DNA of 60,858 bases, the filler included, from Sphacelaria rigidula (lineage: Eukaryota): the NCBI GenBank assembly GCA_964200075.2. It is 9 parts of 9 records of this genome, joined end to end, with 100 filler letters (N's around TTAATTAATTAA, not from the genome) between each part and the next. Parts side by side here need not be neighbours in the genome. Positions count along the whole stretch, not along the records: positions 33,869 to 40,541 come from CAXNAA020018710.1; 8 more parts are not named here. The stretch is one strand, 5' to 3'. Shown in pieces: positions 7,103-41,441 of this stretch. Each line of letters begins with the position of its first letter. Position 1 is the first letter of the stretch. A program made the translations under genes and the position numbers. The notes beneath the pieces are model-generated. The model made no database searches. It had not been told where the DNA came from and saw only the letters and a program-made list of their open reading frames with translations.

Positions 7103-7879
7103 TCGATTACTATTAATACAGTAGCGCTATGTACGCATATTTTTCGATGTGTTTTCCGCCTTATTTCACAGAAGCTATGGCCAGCTTTCGCCTCAGGTGG
7201 TTGCGTGTTCATGTGTGAGCGGTAATGCCGTCGATGTCATAAGACCACTGCAGTGAGCAATATATTCTCCAAAACCTATCGTTGGCGTCACTGGCTATCG
7301 ATAGGTGCCCTCGAGAACAATCGGTTGTTAACGGCAATTGCCATGTTAATGTATACCCAAAAATGCATTGTTGGCGGCAGAGGCTATCGATAGATGGCTC
7401 ACCAAATCTTTTGATTACGGCTATGGCTATCGGGAGTGATCTTTATATATTATAATTGCCATAGGCTATTGATCGACTATTGCAACATCTGTTGTTCCAT
7501 GCAATACATATCAATATATGTGTTTCGCCATCTATCGTGTTTGACGATATATATCGACACGTTTCGACCCGTGTCTATTGCCGCAGGAATGGACTATTAT
7601 CGTATCCATTGTCCAGAGTGTGGTGATTTCGTTCGCTTTACTGCCGGTCATCCGTGTATTTCAGTGCCTTGCCGACACATTCCTATCAATTCATTCACTG
7701 TGTGTCTCGGTCGTATCATGTCCGTAGGTTCTGCGACGTCGACTGAAAGAGGTGGCGGCTGAATCGAAATGCGCAGGACGTCGAACGAGACACACGGACG
7801 GCATCTAGTGCATTCGCGGACGGCAGTGTTATCCTTGATGTGTCGGTGTGTGGCAAGCACTTGAGCACGCCCTATGCGT

Positions 7880-8250
7880 TTTAGGGGAAAAGGAAGTACG
7901 TGGTTGGCTGCTTCGTAGAGTTTACGTTGAAAGTGATTCTAGAGCTACAGTTTCCAGACCCGAGCGGTGCAACAGCCTTTGTGAGGAGCTACGCCACCTG
8001 AGGTCGTGTGCAGTATGTAGTCTCAGTCGGGAGGCAACCTTTGATGAAGTGGGTCCAGTAGATGGGTCCGCAGAGTGTCGCCCCAGCGTCTTCTCTTGTA
8101 CAGGATAAACATAGTGGTGGGGTGTTGGAAATGCACTGTACTGAGGACATGTCGGGTAGTTAGAGGGAGACAGCAACGTTTCACAACTTCTACGCACATC
8201 CGCGGCGGGAGATTCATTCCCTACTTGTTGGTCGAGATCTACCGCTGTGC
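7880..8250 (-). pseudogene. Possible decayed 3' end of a non-LTR retrotransposon ORF2 (CCHC finger region)
   Basis: Minus strand, with one frameshift, reads TCPQYSAFPTPHHYV-LSC...YWTHFIKGCLP, resembling the C-x2-C-x8-H-x4-C and W..F.KG.LP tail of LINE ORF2; weak. Confidence 0.25.
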
Positions 8251-9621
8251 ATTCGTTTGGAACGGGTATCAGAGTCAGCTCTGGATTGGTGTGTACCTGG
8301 AGCTTTTCACCAAAAGGTATGTCGCTACACCGTACCGTGAGAGCGATTTTGGATTGCATGATTGCATGCATCGGGTGGGAGCGGGGCCCCTCGGCCCCTC
8401 GGAGCCTCGTTGGTGGGGTATTTGTCCTGATGCCGTGAAGGCGTGTAGGGTGTCAAACGGTATGTATTGAAATAGGGGCTTGACCCCCGATGGTGTTGTG
8501 TATTAAGCAGCAGCGGAGATGGTGCGCCCGAAGTGTCGCTGCTGCTGTCTTCATATCCTACTTTGTCAGTGAATGCCATTCCCTTGCACAGGTATTGTAA
8601 TTGTTTTCGGCTTACCTGCAGAGCCATACGCTTGTGATACTACCACTCCGTGCCTTCCTAAGGATGCGGTGGGTCGTTCTTCTCCGCGCTTGCCTCTGCT
8701 GTAGGGCATCATGCATCAGGAATGGCACGGAAGTTTCTCGTGCCAAGAGCGCGCTCTGGCGGTTCGTGAAATTAGTGTAGATGCTATAATGCCTGTAAAT
8801 GAACCGAAATGCGGTTCATGATCTCTTGATGTACGTCATTTGGCGTACCTATGCGTAAAAAGTGGTGAAATACGGGGTATTGGTGAGGGGTTTAGGGTGA
8901 CGCCAGGAGTGCTTTACATCAGTGGCTATGCGCGTAGAGGGCATAGGGTGGGTGTGAAATGTTTGGTGCAGGTGTGGTACCGGTAGCGTGAGGTTCTGCC
9001 GTAAAATCCTCTGTTTTCATGTGGAATTTGCTACGAGCCCTGTTCGGTAGAGTTCTTATGGGGGCAGCAGTAGAAGAGGCAATCGATATACCGTCTTATT
9101 CGCTGTTCAACCGCAGTGCTCGACGACAACGCCATCTTCGCTAACACCCTGAAGCTAGGTGTAGTACCCTGCAGTTGTAGATTGCTTCGTGGCTCCTTTG
9201 GGTGTTGAAAATGTGGGGTTTATCATGTACACTGCATGCAGCAGATTTCGAACTTTGAAACATTTCGATACATTTCAGATGATGGATTTTCTATGGAAAT
9301 CATAGTCTAGGGTGGTCAAAGTATGCGCTCCACTTGGCGAACGTTGCGGCATTGTGATTCTAGCTCCGTCGTCACGGACTAGATGCTAACTTCTCGCCGC
9401 GCCGTGTGCGCGTCGGGCGCGGTCAAGAAGGCAAACAGCCGAAACATGTGTGAACTTGATGATGCGGCAAATAGGGGGAAACAGAGCGAGCGTTACTGGG
9501 TGAAAGGGTGCCTTAGTTGAAGTAAAACGTAGTCCATGCTGCTCGCTGAGCAAAGTAGATCAGGAGGGCCACGAACGTGCTGATCCGAGATTTCCGCCCA
9601 AAACATCCGAGGGTGGCTGTT

Positions 9622-33868: not shown

Positions 33869-33913
<45 letters not shown>

Positions 33914-33935
33914 GCAACAACAACATCAACAACAA
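33869..33935. repeat. (CAA)n microsatellite at contig start
   Basis: Direct reading. Confidence 0.95.
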
Positions 33936-34494
33936 CCGTTACCGCTTCCGCTTTCATCAGTACCTCTGTCCCCATCTCGTCTACCAGCCCCGCTTTTGCA
34001 TAATTCGTTGCAATTCGCTGCCATCCCTTGTCCGCTTGTCTCGCCGCTCTTGTCGCACTGCGCGTGCGATCTGAGCTGCATCGTCTCCCTAGGCCGTGTT
34101 TACCAAGGGTACCAATGGTTGTGAACGGCAGAGATGACGGTGCTGTTGATGGTGAGGATGAGGTGCTTGGGGTACCGGCAGCGCGGGTGTTTGTTCCCTG
34201 GTCATCGTCGGCATTGTAGATGGCGCGGTGTGGGCGACTCAGCTGATATTAGTGTGTACTGTGCTGCTGACGACGGCGGTGTGTATGGCGCCACCGATGT
34301 CGGCGGTCAGCATAGCGCCGCCGATGACTGCCGATGACGGTGTGGGCGGCCCCGCCGATGACTGCGGTGTAGATGGCGCCGAGCCCTGGTCATCGACGGA
34401 GTTGCGTAAAATTTCCCCGCCTTTTCCGGCCCCGCACGGTTCGCAGGGTCGTCTTACCCCTGCCCCCCGCCCCCCGCTTCGAGAGTAGGAATGG

Positions 34495-34582
34495 TGCTCC
34501 AGACGGTACTCTGCCTCGAAAGTGATGCGTGGTCAATGGTCAAACGACCAATGCAAACAAAACTGACTACACCCCCCTCCTC
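34495..34582 (-). repeat. Repeat family B monomer 2
   Basis: Reverse complement similar to 29285-29372 (GGTCGTTTGACCATTGACCACGCATC..TTTCGAG). Confidence 0.7.
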
Positions 34583-34989
34583 CCGTTCGTGGGCATGGAG
34601 AACAGCAGATATCGAGAACCGCTCGGTGAAGCGCCTACGGCTGGGGTTTCCCCCAAAGACTCGCTGTCGACCGGCCTTCACTCGACGTTGTTATCCTTCT
34701 CTTCGGTGGGCGTCTGGATCGCTTGACGTTGTACGAGGGAGCATGTAGGGGGTATGTACGCCCATTTTATATGTTTGGTCGCAACTGTTTGTCCTGTTTC
34801 GATCATTACCCGATTGACATCCCGGGACTATCTCGGGGCTGGGCTGAGGTATCAGCATCTCCGTGATTTCGGCTGTAGCGTTCTCTCTTGTCCGGGTTTC
34901 AAGAAAGGAATGGGACTACTGTTCGGTGGCGATCCTTGCGACATCTCATGTGGCGTCATGTTACCCGGTTTAGCTGAGGTGGTAACACA

Positions 34990-37470
34990 ATCCAAAGTAT
35001 AGCACGTCCGGTATGTTTGTTTCGGCCACAGAACTTGACGAGTGAGAATACGTTGTTTCGGGTATATTTGTGATACCTCCCACAGAAATTTTCATATTCT
35101 GTTTTGGGTACATTTTTGAGAATTGAATTTTGGCCGCAAGGCTGGCTGACTCGATGATGCCTATTGCACACTCATCAACACTGTTGAACTGTAGAGTGTC
35201 TACGGTTTGCTCTTGCTTGTTTTTCTCGCGGTCACAGACGTCGGCAAATACACCCTTTCCGAGAATTCATCTCACCGTCGCTACGTACCACCTCTACATT
35301 TCTAGGAGAAAACTCTGCGAGGTTCTTGGCTAAGTACTGTTCGGCCTCACCCCTCGAGCGGAAAACGCATAGTATAGTGTACCAAGAGTATTCATCACCA
35401 ACTATCATGTTGCACCACTTCACGCCCCCGGATCTAACTGGTTGTGGCCCTGAAAGATCTATGCACACTCTGGATGCTGGCGGAGCTGTTCTGGTGTGAG
35501 TCGACCTTGGTACGGGTCGTCGGAGTCCTCTACCCTCCGAGCATCCACGGCATGATCTCAGCTCGGCTCGCAGCTCCATCCTGAGCTACTTCGCGGTCTT
35601 GCGCCGGGGATCCTCCCGCACTCGAGCGTGGGAACAGTGAATATTGGTGTCGACGATCTGGGGACTAGGTATCGCCCCGAAAAATCCCGATTTCAGGAAT
35701 CTGTGCTGGCCGAGTACCTTCAGGGTGTCGTCGGACATCAACTCTACTAAAACCCCGTCATGGCATACGATGTAGGTGTGTCCTGCGGTCAAGATTTTGG
35801 TCAGGGGCAAGAGATAAAGATAGACGCCTTGTGGCGTGGTGTACATTCTTGACATGCAGCACCTCACGACGTCCGTCAGATCGGGAGGAGAGCGTCAGGT
35901 CACTCCTGCCAACGATCGGGTACGTACTACCACCCGCACACCGTAGTACCCTATTCCTGCACGCTCGGTACTCTGTGTATCTCATCAGAGCCAGGCACAA
36001 AATTCTGGGTTGCCTCCAAATCAGACGGCTATAGTTCGCTTCCATTCTGCTGTTCAACACCCCCCGTCTACAGACGGTACCCTCGCCTGTGGTGTCTTAC
36101 GTAGTCATCGTCATGTCTACGTCGGTGAACGCCTCTGCCTCGGCATCCGAGCATATGAAAGCGTCGACTCCGTTGCTTACCGAATCCATCGCTGTGACCA
36201 CATCTTCTCCATGCTCTAGAAAATCAAGCAGTGTGCGCATTTTCCGCGCTTGCCGTAGTGCCTCCCAGGGCGGAGTCTCGCTCGGTGTGTTCTCCTCTAC
36301 TGGCAGATGTGACAGCACTAATTGCCAGCTCCTTGCACTGTGAAGACTCGACAAAGGGGAGAGTATATTGGTTTTGCATACTATTCAGTGATCTCTTCTT
36401 GACTCGCCAATCGAAATGTAAGCCATAGACCATAAGCTCCTCCCGATCTGCTACCAAAATCCCAGATGCAAGAAATCAAGAAGCCAAGTGGGACGAGGTG
36501 GGCATCTCGCGACGTGTGTGGTACTTAGGTCATTATGGAGTCTCACTTACGTGCTTGGCTCAATCGCCGCTTTGCCCCGCTAATCCGAATGCACTTAATC
36601 TGACCTAGTTGCACAAGTATCCTACAGCTCGTACACATGTACAAGGATCGAGTCTGCGCACATCCGAGTAAGTGCCACTGCGTCGCAGCGGCCGATTGAC
36701 TTTTTGATGATGATGCCGATGATGCCGATGACTGACTGCTTGTGCCCTGGTTCCCGTCACCACGACCTGAACCCTGGCTCTTCCCCGGGTTTTCCTTCCG
36801 GCGTGAGCAATTGGGTCCGCCGGTTTGACCCTTGACAACAAGAGCTTCATTCCCGGAGGTAGTGTTCCCTCGACGACCTCTTGGTACCTCACCATGTTTT
36901 CTCGCGAAAGAGGACCCGCAGGATTGTCTAGCCCTCTCTTGTGAAGACTTTACTCGGGACGAAGGGGATTCTTCGTATTTAAAGAGAGTCAGCAAGTTTA
37001 TCAGGATCATATGGTCATCGAACGGTCTCAGCTATCGAGCCACATCCTCCATTTCGATTTGCTTCCGAAATCGCGTATTCTCGCACGCCAATCTTGACAT
37101 ATTCGTATATTTCCAACAACGTCAGTCTGGATTCATTATTCAAATCTCGGGGCTTTATTACTCTCATCAGCTCATGCCAAACATCCTTGTCTGTTCTAAT
37201 ATATCAGGGCTCGCGACCAGTATCTGTTTACCTGTTACATTCGCTGACTTTGCGTTGTCTTGCCTCCGGGCGAAGCACTGATAACTCCGTGTGTTCCACT
37301 TTCATAGCATGCGAGCTATAGGTAGACCTGGTGAACATCCAATCGAGGCCTTTGCTTCTCGCAAAGTTTATTAAATTGTGTCTGAAAAAGAAGAATTATG
37401 AACTCCTTTAAGAGTGATTCGATACGGCAGCCTTTACAATAGATATGCCTACGATATCATGGCCACTCGA
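34990..37470 (-). mobile_element. Decayed Ty1/copia retrotransposon (gag, protease, GAG-pre-integrase, integrase core)
   Basis: Minus strand: VDTNIHCSHA..RE...RKTAK; CRGCSEGRGLRRPVPRSTHTRTAPPASRVCIDLSGP...MIVGDEYS...VEVVRSDG (copia integrase); upstream VLRCAGGSTYPIVGRSDL (protease region) and gag-like relics; many stops and frameshifts. Confidence 0.88.
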
Positions 37471-38463
37471 ACCGTACAGAGCGACTGAGTCACGTTTGGA
37501 GTCCAAGTCTCTAGCTTCATCGCTTCCAACCCTGCGGTCGCCCCTCTCTCGATAGCTCCGGCGGCTTCACGCCACGCTAGGTTCGGCTCCACTGTCAGCC
37601 TATTGCAGCGGTTATGTCGCTCGGATTCCCCGCGCAGGGAATCCGTTGCTATCGATGACGTTACTCCGTTGCAGGCCACCGGACTCGTGTGCTTCTTCAA
37701 AACCATCTACCCGACTCTGTCAGGCAAGCAAACTTCATTGCACACCCCTAGCAAGCTCAACCAGTACGCAAAACGAACTTGTCAACCGGCTCGACGTTTT
37801 CTTTACTGAGCGTTTTTGTCTGTCCTTTATCATAAAGTTGGAAGAAATTTCTCACCATGCTTTCAGAGTCTCGATAATCTGGCATCCACTTTACCTGAAA
37901 AATGATATCTTACGAAACTGTAAGACTGCAGGTTTGATCAGGTTTGATCATCTCAGCGTACGTACCCTGCATCCTTGGAGCAAGCGCTCAACGTTGAGCT
38001 ACACAGTTCGGTGAGACGAGCGAATGAGTACCGTGCAGAGCGATAAGGAATACGAGTGAGCGTCTTGCATATCAAGTGGATATTCATCCACCTATTGCGT
38101 GAGATAGACCTTGGGGTGTTGATTTGTTGTGAATACACGACAAGATACCGTGGCAGGTTGTTCGGACCAGTATGTAGCATTCAGTATGAAAGCGGTATTT
38201 GCGTAGGTTTTTACGAATTCTGACAATGTGAGACGTACGTACAGAAAAACAGTACGGTGTCTGTCCTTGTTTCCCAGCTGCAGTGCCGCTGCCAGCAGAA
38301 AAGTTGGCCATCGCAGCTAGGTTGCCGCACACACGAGTACAGATACCATCACCAGCAACAAGCAGCATTCATCTAGCAGCGGCCGACCGGTGTATGCAGC
38401 ACAAGTAGGGAGAAGTAGGCACGAACTAGCGCGCTTCGCAGAGGATCGATCGACTTTTACAGC

Positions 38464-40038
38464 ATGTCCGGCATTGGCGGGGGCGCGGCTCAAGCAGGCG
38501 GAGATGAAAATCTGGCACCACACGGAGACGGCATAGCTGGGGTGGGGGCCGGTGGACTTCCCATAGCCGGCGGCGGAAGCCAAGCACACCAAGGCGGCGA
38601 GGGGGTGGCAGGGCATAACAATCCACACGCGGCAGCAGCAGCGGCAGTCGACCAACCTCAGGGCGTAGCGCAAGCACCCGTCATGTCGCAGCAGGTGTTC
38701 CAGCAGCACATGCTGGCGGCCGTGGCCCAGTTGACCAATCGCCTGCAGACGGTCGAGAATAACCAGCAGCCGCAGCCGCTACAACTGCCACACGCACCCC
38801 CACAGCAACCACCGCTGCAGATCGGGAACGGGTGGCAACAACCACCACAACCGCATGTTTCAGCAGCTGGCGCGCAAGCGGCGGCACAACGGACCGCAGC
38901 TGAACAGGCGGGTATAAAAGCAAATGCAAAACGTGCCGTCGACTCGTGGCGGGCCACCACTGGGCCTATGTTTTTTCTCCTGAGGGGGGGCTTTGACGTG
39001 AGTGAAGATCTCACTTTCCACCTACAACAGCTCACGCTCAAGAAGGTGGCTTACGTTACGCACGCATCCGCTAACCAGCTTCACACCCTGGCCAATTTCA
39101 AGACAATGGACTTCAAAAAACCGGTGCCACCAGGCTCGACCCCCATGGATATGCCGGCTGATGTGCATTTTCACACGTTTGTCGCGTCCCTGTTCACAGT
39201 TTTGCTTACCCCCATGGAGCACGCTCCCGAATTATGCAAGACACGCACGCGCGCCCTTCAGTCGGAGTTCGAATCAGTAGCTAACCAAGTAAGGGAGTAT
39301 ACAGATTACCACTACACATCACTGTACCCACATAGAACGACGGTCCGCGACAAGCTTCTAACAGCCATGGACACCGGCATAGAGGAGTTCTTCTACCGGG
39401 TGGCACTTCAGGCACAACAGCTCCGCAGGACTTACCCGGCCGTAGTTCCGCCGTCGACGACGGGGGAGCCGGTAGCGGCGCCGGCTTTTACAAAACTTAA
39501 AGCCCTCGTCACCGAGGACGGGCCCAACTGCCTAGTTGAGAAGTCCGCCTTCTGGCAAGCCGGCGAGGCAAGGACAAACAAAAAACGGAAAGCGACATCG
39601 CAGGCAGGCCCCCCAGCTCCCCCATCTTCGAGCATCACCACGCCGGCGGGACCCCCGTCGACCTTCGTTCAACGTAAAGTCCAGTGGCAGACTCCAAAGG
39701 ACGTTTGCGTATACCACTGGCAAAACATACCGTGCACGCGCAACAACTGCAAGTTTTCTCATGATATCGTGTCCCCGCTGGCATCCGGGCAGGCGCAGGT
39801 TACGCCGACGCCGACAGCGCCGGCGCCGGCCCAGACACCACCACCGATCCCGCCCCCGCAGCCTCCGGCAACCCCGGCACAGCAGGCACCATCTCAAGCG
39901 CATCAACTGCCTGCTCACCAGCACCAGCAATCGGCGCCCGCCCCGGCACCGGTAGCACGATATTCACACAACTACGGAGGGCGCGGCGGGGGAAGGGGGG
40001 GTAGCGCCGCTGGCGGGAGAGGAAACGGGAGCGGATGA
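38464..40038 (+). CDS. Intact 524-aa Gag/ORF1-like protein of a retroelement (DIRS/Ngaro-like or other), with CCCH zinc finger and RGG tail
   Basis: Longest ORF in the window and intronless; low-complexity G/A/Q/P ends, helical core, KKRK, C-x8-C-x4-C-x3-H at 39706-39762, GGRGGGRGG C-terminus; class assignment is inference. Confidence 0.65.
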   Translation: MSGIGGGAAQAGGDENLAPHGDGIAGVGAGGLPIAGGGSQAHQGGEGVAGHNNPHAAAAAAVDQPQGVAQAPVMSQQVFQQHMLAAVAQLTNRLQTVENNQQPQPLQLPHAPPQQPPLQIGNGWQQPPQPHVSAAGAQAAAQRTAAEQAGIKANAKRAVDSWRATTGPMFFLLRGGFDVSEDLTFHLQQLTLKKVAYVTHASANQLHTLANFKTMDFKKPVPPGSTPMDMPADVHFHTFVASLFTVLLTPMEHAPELCKTRTRALQSEFESVANQVREYTDYHYTSLYPHRTTVRDKLLTAMDTGIEEFFYRVALQAQQLRRTYPAVVPPSTTGEPVAAPAFTKLKALVTEDGPNCLVEKSAFWQAGEARTNKKRKATSQAGPPAPPSSSITTPAGPPSTFVQRKVQWQTPKDVCVYHWQNIPCTRNNCKFSHDIVSPLASGQAQVTPTPTAPAPAQTPPPIPPPQPPATPAQQAPSQAHQLPAHQHQQSAPAPAPVARYSHNYGGRGGGRGGSAAGGRGNGSG

Positions 40039-40067
40039 GGGCGCGGGCTCTGCCCACCGGCAGGGCC
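40036..40067 (+). promoter_or_regulatory. Candidate stop-codon readthrough signal: UGA + 7-nt spacer + 9-bp hairpin
   Basis: TGA GGGCGCG GGCTCTGCC-CACC-GGCAGGGCC (8 Watson-Crick pairs + 1 G:U); the same frame stays open to the contig end. Confidence 0.4.
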
Positions 40068-40541
40068 GACATTGACAGGAGAAGCGGGTAGCGACGTAAA
40101 CACGATGTTTGCGGACGCCTCTAGGTCTGTGGGGCTTATCGGGGCACCTTCACCTGGGTCGGTCCCAGCGACCGTGTTTCAAGGTGAGAGATGTAGAGAG
40201 CAGACAGAGATAGCGGTGCCTTGCGACTGGGTTTGCGAACACAGGGGGAACCAGGGTTACGAAAAAAACGGGGTATCAGTGTGCCCTCGGCAGTTTGTCA
40301 CGTCAGTTCACTCAGGACAAGATCGCGTAACCCACCAGATAGTAAAAACCCATTCAATGCCGCTCCCACAGGCGGTCGGCGTCGCGCCGCCAACAACAGT
40401 AACCCCTGGTACAGTAGAACAAGACACGCCAGTTTTGCATGCAGCAGGGACCAGTTACGCCATTCACGAACATGGGGCCAGTTACCCCTTCAGTGACCGT
40501 GGGGCCAGTTACCCTTTCAGTGACCGTGGGGCCAGTTACCC
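40039..40541 (+). CDS. In-frame continuation after the Gag-like stop (>160 codons, truncated by contig end); possible ORF2 leader
   Basis: ORF 40072 is in frame with 38464 (offset 1608 nt); the two other plus frames close within ~60 nt of the stop. Confidence 0.45.
40447..40541 (+). repeat. 27-bp in-frame tandem repeat (GASYPFSDR), >=3.5 copies
   Basis: Units at 40447, 40474, 40501, 40528: GGGGCCAGTTACCC(C/T)TTCAGTGACCGT (first unit diverged). Confidence 0.95.
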
Positions 40542-40641: not shown

Positions 40642-41441
40642 TTTTGTTGGAACAGAGACGGCCGGTGTCTGAATGGGTTGATGTTTTGCCAGCCGCTCAG
40701 TGGGCGTTGAATACTTCTTTTCGTGAAACCTACCGTAACACTCCGTATTGTGTGATGTTTGGGCGTGCGCCGCGTACAGCATTTTCTGCACTGGTTTCTG
40801 TCACTGGCGACGAGTGCAACGTCGATGTCATGGATGCTGATTCGTTGCGTGACAAGGTTCGAGGCGTGGTTGGCGAGCAAGTGCCGGTTTGTAACGAAGA
40901 GCAAGCTGCTGTCGCGGTGTCTCGCGAAACCAAACGCAAGCTTGCTCAGGGCCAGGCGGTGTTGCCCAAGTTTGCAGTTGGCGATTTCGTCTTGTATGCC
41001 CGTGTTCGTAGGCAAGGTGTGACGCTCAAGTTGATGCCCACATGGACAGGTCCGTGGCGAGTGGTTGGAGCCGATCACGCTCACGTGTATTCGGTGTAGA
41101 ACATTGTTTCTGGCGCCGTGCACTTGGCCCATGTCGCTCGTTTGTGTTTCAATGCTGACCCGCAGTTGCACATCACTGCGGAACTAGACTATGTACATCA
41201 TCATTCGTATGCTCAAAGTGAATGTCGGATGAATGCTTTGGTGCACGTCGTTGAGGATGACAATGGTGATGCCATTGTTTTGGTCGATTGGGAAGGGTTC
41301 GGTGCTGAACATTGTACGTGGGAGTCTCTTCGCAAGATTCATTTTTATGCGCCTGAATTTGTTTCAAAGGAACTGCGTAAAGTGCGGTTGGCTCGGGCGC
41401 TGACAAGTAAGTTATCGTCGGAGCATGGTATCTCTTTGTGA
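40642..41441 (+). mobile_element. Ty3/gypsy pol C-terminus: integrase core end, GPY/F module and chromodomain; pseudogenised
   Basis: WVDVLPAAQWALNTS...TPYCVMFGRAPRT; FAVGDFVLY...KLMPTWTGPWRVV; VLVDWEGFGAEHCTWESL; one in-frame TAG at 41097-41099. Confidence 0.92.

Follow-up and report, generated by a model that had tools for sequence, protein, structure and literature searches.

The window analyzed here is a stretch of 60,858 nucleotides of Sphacelaria rigidula DNA (assembly GCA_964200075.2), in which contigs of about 6.7 kb are joined by runs of N and neighbours across a run of N are unrelated. The features of interest lie on the plus strand of one contig, which occupies positions 33869-40541; the contig that follows carries, at 40642-41441, broken frames which resemble the integrase end and chromodomain of a Ty3/gypsy element. 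An intact gag-like reading frame, ORF1, occupies 38464..40038 and encodes 524 amino acids from the ATG at 38464, with a Gly/Arg-rich tail at its end. Substitutions shared among copies of ORF1 were skewed to synonymous changes in the gag frame (ratio 0.52). A CCCH zinc-finger-like motif (C-x8-C-x5-C-x3-H) was located by pattern match at 39706..39762, and the Pfam Nab2-like CCCH profile matched the protein below its cut-off (E=0.16). Among the eight families of related elements described below, CCCH-type motifs upstream of the gag stop were also present in families C, D and H, while the pattern used for family A, that of the window element, was not found in families B, E, F and G. None of the 8000 candidates scored was a gag homologue from outside this genome, and the ESM Atlas search with gag was uninformative (best score 0.88).

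ORF1 is closed by a single TGA (40036..40038), followed by a 7-nt G-rich spacer, GGGCGCG (40039..40045; family pattern GGG-NRC-G), and a hairpin at 40046..40067 consisting of a 9-bp stem (arms 40046-40054 and 40059-40067, with one U-G pair) and a 4-nt loop. The gag frame then remains open for 167 codons, as the start of ORF2 (pol, 40039..40541), up to the contig edge. The other two frames past the stop close after a median of 11 and 16 codons in family A, and the ATG overlapping the stop opens a frame of only 18 codons (40035..40091), which is out of frame with gag, is not conserved, and is probably incidental. Recomputation thus reproduced the layout given in the original prediction, namely a 524-codon frame with one TGA, the spacer and stem-loop, more than 160 open codons beyond, and prompt closure of both other frames. 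The first in-frame ATG past the stop is codon 23 (40105..40107), at a position which differs in other families. Taken alone, and in such GC-rich sequence, the window hairpin is not clearly above chance, with a z score of -2.1 in a 101-nt segment (5/200 shuffles) and of -0.3 in a 60-nt segment (69/200 shuffles). It rises above chance because it is conserved: a motif search of the 244-Mb genome returned 66 matches compared with none in the reversed control, and the hairpin recurs at the same offset in all eight families.

A DNA search of the same genome with the window element gave 36 matches. Paralogue homology begins at approximately 38172, and the 286-nt stretch at 38172..38457 recurs 6.6-6.9 kb downstream in copies L039 and L040, where it is flanked by two B repeats. 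It is therefore the 5' terminal repeat A1 of a set of split direct repeats (A1..B1 A2 B2). In L040 the A repeats lie at 1284-1569 and 7853-8138 and the B repeats at approximately 7604-7853 and 8230-8555, and L039 is alike. Past the stop, the order within the element is a 27-nt tandem array, RT with RNase H, and a tyrosine recombinase (YR) ORF; the 27-nt (9-codon) array begins in the window at 40447..40541, and paralogues contain 13-18 copies at 27-nt spacing. The A1..B1 A2 B2 layout is given in PMC8547959, as excerpted, as defining Ngaro elements. PAT-like elements have the same layout. The window element is a Ngaro-type YR retrotransposon, an assignment which draws on repeat layout and motifs, library matches being weak. 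A short motif closing repeat A just ahead of the gag start (window 38445-38466; near 2035 of L088, as oriented) was similar in families A and B.

Inspection of the post-stop ORF by eye located RT and RNase H motifs. RVT_1 was matched in 6/13 aligned pol homologues (best E 2.7e-4), fell below the curated cut-off on a family-C copy, and was annotated on 33% of members of the ESM Atlas cluster for pol, at 0.96. The YR motifs R, HxxR and Y could be aligned in four natural ORF3s, with single-copy changes present; library matches to this ORF were weak, Cre (E 0.012) ranking under a ribosomal S1 match and Phage_integrase reaching E 0.26. Pol ends shortly past RNase H, and Pfam, which is insensitive on these proteins, returned no methyltransferase domain. 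A PDB search with the pol alignment gave nothing significant, and no match to the element was found among the viral contigs searched. The RT tree was built from copies of this genome. In contigs from two sequencing runs, X5 and X8, position 1281 of L040 is followed by position 8557 with 5 other letters in between. This is an empty site, which gives an element of about 7.3 kb, and the L040 insertion may be polymorphic. Long inverted repeats, possibly MITE-like insertions, were seen at L049:5927-6565 and L040:9210-9652, one of them within the element.

Related copies were collected by RT search, which gave 151 matches; 40 of the more distant were fetched, followed by 40 further loci, of which 29 were among the 66 motif matches. 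The RT search led to families B-G irrespective of the junction, and the motif to family H and additional copies, so that with many copies gathered by motif, conservation within families is inflated. The resulting 87 junctions fall into eight families (A-H), with RT identity of 29-55% among A-G. A stop codon was kept in 79/87 copies, and TAA was used in none. Families A (21/25), B (34/35), E, G and H use TGA, while C (8/8), D (9/12) and F use TAG. With regard to family A, 30 loci were reduced to 28 on removal of one duplicate and one lacking the site, and 23 of these 28 distinct copies kept TGA, the exceptions being TGG (two copies), CGA, AGA and CAA; these five are consistent with the 6% decay of the surrounding sequence. 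A sense codon at this position, against which the prediction was to be checked, is thus the exception among paralogues. Fifteen related loci without the motif were excluded from the 87. Four of these had decayed junctions (TGA twice, TGG and TGC), one had a deletion, and ten had no match to the junction. The stop is the modal state in all families, which rules out a nonsense mutation in a decayed copy, and the use of UAG by three families rules out selenocysteine.

The spacer and hairpin were compared across the same families. The spacer is 7 nt in all eight, with 5/7 positions invariant among 13 representatives, and in each of the eight family representatives the stem is placed alike, its first nucleotide lying 8 nt past the stop. 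Stems have 8-11 bp and loops have 3-4 nt that differ between families. All modal stem pairs in A-G are standard pairs. Relative to family B, both sides have changed in family A (C-G to U-A) and in family E (G-C to A-U), whereas the changes in C, D, F and G are by wobble, and F and G gain two pairs. The spacer-hairpin unit measures 26 nt in family E and in H (copy L170), 29 nt in A-D, and 32 nt in F and G; as its length varies in steps of 3 nt, the frame is kept. Family H had appeared to break the frame by virtue of a 31-nt unit in L136, a reading rejected since L170 has the 26-nt unit and L136 carries 5 extra nucleotides. In two further relatives, L171 and L172, the junction has decayed. The hairpin is therefore conserved well beyond the window, non-conservation having been named at the outset as evidence against readthrough. 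Formal covariation of the stem is borderline: 98% of cells were paired, compared with 33-56% when the alignment was slid, with 25-32/500 shuffles reaching the observed values, in an alignment of related sequences with family E off by one pair. Four of the nine stem pairs never vary, and single-sequence folding was weak in 6/8 families (z -0.3 to -1.9). Third positions of Gly codons in the junction are fixed while adjacent amino acids are variable, from which we infer a constraint at the RNA level. Rfam gave one match on the junction, at chance level, and a motif scan of metagenome contigs returned eight matches, none with pol.

To determine whether the stretch after the stop is translated in frame with gag, we followed the frame toward RT. 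The stop-to-RT frame is 0 in families A-D, copies of E, F, G and H being too broken or too few, and a -1 frameshift is thereby ruled out. Natural copies with an unbroken frame from the stop into the RT region are L083 of family B (835 aa), L098 of C (536 aa) and L113 of D (423 aa); these match the modal phase of their family in every interval save, for B and C, the last one, which closes the aligned stretch on its 3' side. In family A, the 471 codons open past the TGA in L033 overlap an RT frame of 806 codons in L034. The modal phases of all family-A intervals (support of at least 75%) sum to 0, although most copies have private frameshifts and only 4-7 of approximately 20 keep the phase on their own as far as RT. 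The linker from stop to RT contains long in-frame tandem repeats in family B (L083, L099, L101), the 9-codon repeats in A, and no such repeats in C and D, and its length differs between families by several hundred codons. The frame extending past the stop, as proposed originally, thus leads into RT and RNase H in these four families.

Shared substitutions past the stem favour frame 0, with ratios of 0.32 in family A (p=0.002) and 0.42 in D (p=0.006), over stretches which include codons past the first Met; for the pre-Met stretch alone, selection was not significant (B, p=0.18; B and C together, p=0.075). The first in-frame Met codon is 23 in A, 79 in B, 85 in C, 18 in D, 30 in E and 80 or 165 in G, with none in the 107 codons of F. 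Ahead of the point where B and G have their first Met, a block of 25 codons shows 52-64% protein identity among A, B and G (13-16/25 residues), with third positions most changed and second positions least. In family C, alignments with pol homologues of other assemblies cover codons 9-85, a stretch that lies ahead of the first Met. The peptide encoded by the stem's 3' arm stands at the matching place in three proteins from outside this genome (P0002, P0053 and P0173), a hint at protein level that other organisms may have the signal as well.

We consider programmed readthrough of the gag stop, stimulated by the spacer and hairpin, to be the probable explanation of this arrangement. Separate translation of pol, from an internal promoter, by reinitiation, or at a downstream AUG or non-AUG codon, with the hairpin serving as an initiation or promoter element, appears unlikely. 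An in-frame ATG is present at codon 23 in most family-A copies, families A, E and G have an ATG overlapping the stop, and a minor promoter is described within the Tca2 junction in the excerpted text of PMC2194720. However, no start codon is common to the families, and protein conservation extends ahead of the first Met. Stop-start reinitiation at the overlapping ATG was rejected, as this codon does not share the gag frame and is missing from B, C, D and F. Separate initiation would, in addition, not keep the frame across the hairpin or from the stop to the splice-like donor described below.

A fusion of gag to pol by alternative splicing, as in copia, with the stop spliced out or bypassed, seems quite improbable. 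While the elements do carry strong splice-like sites, and the stop reads as YAG|G in the three TAG families, five families have TGA instead. No GT donor upstream of the stop is common to family-A or family-B copies, the single candidate being a GC-type site 1.4 kb upstream in A, and the 30 nt ahead of the stop are only 23-34% pyrimidine. Past the stop no acceptor position is common to families, and no common donor-acceptor pair bypasses the stop. Closure of the downstream frame, a splice bypass and independent initiation had been named in advance as outcomes that would count against readthrough; the frame instead reaches RT, with neither a shared bypass nor a conserved start codon found.

It is less probable still that the short context suffices to make the stop leaky, with the hairpin kept for another role such as packaging, dimerisation or priming. 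LTR elements with short contexts such as UGA-C are described in 10.1101/2022.12.06.519325, in the part seen, and the invariance of much of the stem is as compatible with protein binding as with a structure; yet the base past the stop is G and not the C listed there as favourable, and the stem stands at a fixed distance of 7 nt from the stop in eight families. Finally, A-to-I editing of UGA or UAG to UGG on part of the transcripts is very improbable: a single A-to-G step leads from either stop to UGG, no copy uses UAA, and among the non-stop variants TGG is the most frequent (3/8 among the 87 junctions, with one further among the motif-less loci), but the stop lies outside the stem, these tiny numbers are consistent with transitions, and ADAR is, to our knowledge, animal-specific. 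The TGG copies are L037, L100, L134 and L155, too few to tell from ordinary transitions.

Splice-like sites were found in a second position, between the stop and the YR ORF. A phase-1 donor is predicted in the window at 40181..40189 (cut 40183|40184), the putative partner being an acceptor just ahead of the YR ORF. Donor-like sites in phase 1 past the stop were present in 20/25 copies of A, 30/35 of B, 7/8 of C (two candidates), 7/12 of D, in E, and in 3/3 of G; in family F the donor is off phase in its two (broken) copies. One of the two candidates in family C (L121-L127), 60 nt past the stop, is of GC type. Of 42 copies scored, 36 have a YAG|G acceptor where the YR ORF begins, and in all seven families the YR frame is entered from it in phase 1, some copies shifting frame later. 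Most copies of B, C and G and both of F have no in-frame ATG from stop to donor, and no Met from the acceptor to the first conserved YR helix. A phase-1 donor past the stop and a phase-1 acceptor ahead of the YR ORF suggest that YR may be made as a Gag-readthrough-YR fusion, and if the splice is real, YR would depend on readthrough. Contigs of four sequencing runs cover L040, and none of the 15/85 joints listed was a GT..AG joint at the predicted sites.

With readthrough as the preferred reading, a single transcript from repeat A1 would carry gag and pol in one frame. At the gag stop, UGA in five families and UAG in three, most ribosomes would terminate, giving Gag. The GC-rich hairpin, which starts 8 nt past the stop where mRNA enters the ribosome, would slow termination, and a minority of ribosomes would insert an amino acid and continue into a Gag-RT-RNase H protein, in whatever ratio this leakiness might set. 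Splicing from a donor 60-170 nt past the stop to the acceptor at the head of the YR ORF would probably yield a second readthrough product, Gag-linker-YR. Taken together, these steps would amount to two stacked switches under one promoter, a spacer-hairpin signal making UGA or UAG leaky and a post-stop splice choosing between RT/RNase H and recombinase, with both enzymes made solely as readthrough Gag fusions by a signal of about 30 nt that reached the design of murine leukaemia virus (MuLV) independently and without a pseudoknot. We lean only slightly toward this fuller scheme. The prediction of a retroelement that may express an ORF1-ORF2 fusion is supported by the in-frame RT/RNase H and the conserved junction. 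The element is of the Ngaro-type YR class, the stop is UAG as well as UGA, and readthrough itself is inferred from the sequence.

In organization, the closest described elements are the Ngaro elements (DIRS order) of Cafeteria burkhardae (PMC8547959) and Ngaro-1 to -8 of Ectocarpus (PMC12477816), which in the excerpts of these papers have the same A1-[gag, RT/RH, YR]-B1A2B2 layout and a length of about 7.3 kb. The Ectocarpus annotations also include, as here, a zinc finger in ORF1 and variable internal tandem repeats (PMC12477816). Unlike the gag-stop-pol frame described here, both sets are presented as separate ORFs, and term searches of the portions of the two texts at hand returned no mention of readthrough or of an in-frame gag stop. 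These papers list three ORFs and are, in those portions, silent on how RT and recombinase are translated, to which the junction offers a specific and testable answer; it would also explain the frequent lack of a start codon in the recombinase ORF, and Ngaro annotations may be too short where pol or YR is taken to begin at the first AUG. Our literature search found no paper on readthrough in DIRS or Ngaro elements; in-frame stops could be mentioned in the founding accounts of Ngaro (Goodwin and Poulter 2004; Poulter and Butler 2015) or in Repbase, which lie outside the texts covered here. The putative short, structure-based signal thus falls in an element class and lineage for which no printed precedent was found, and a candidate stimulatory hairpin which has comparative support and follows both UGA and UAG is new. 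The eight natural variants, with two stop codons and three stem lengths, are a ready mutant series.

Conserved in-frame stops between gag and pol occur in LTR elements, namely Tca2 of Candida albicans and Tj1, Tosmo1-3 and Tcry1 of fission yeasts, each with one such stop conserved among relatives (PMC2194720 and 10.1101/2022.12.06.519325, both as excerpted). Unlike the present element these encode an integrase, and the fission-yeast elements conserve a UGA-CU context, whereas the stop here precedes G. The Tca2 junction, although similar in look, is reported in the same excerpt of PMC2194720 to have given no readthrough in a yeast reporter. In alphaviruses a 3' stem-loop raises UGA readthrough (PMC8310308, in part), but these are RNA viruses with a structure of about 150 nt and with C past the UGA. 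The nearest parallel is Moloney MuLV, in which, according to the part of PMC8310308 consulted, a stop, an 8-nt purine spacer and a 3' structure produce approximately 5% readthrough. As in MuLV, gag, stop and pol share one frame, G follows the stop, and a purine-rich spacer leads to a 3' RNA structure. In contrast to MuLV, the spacer is 7 nt and not 8, UGA is used as well as UAG, and neither protease nor integrase is expected in a YR element. Loops of 3-4 nt which differ between families leave no room for a second stem or a pseudoknot of the MuLV type. The MuLV-type architecture proposed for this locus thus holds for the single in-frame stop (A-D), the G-leading, purine-rich 7-nt spacer and the 3' hairpin (eight families), but with a plain hairpin in place of the pseudoknot.
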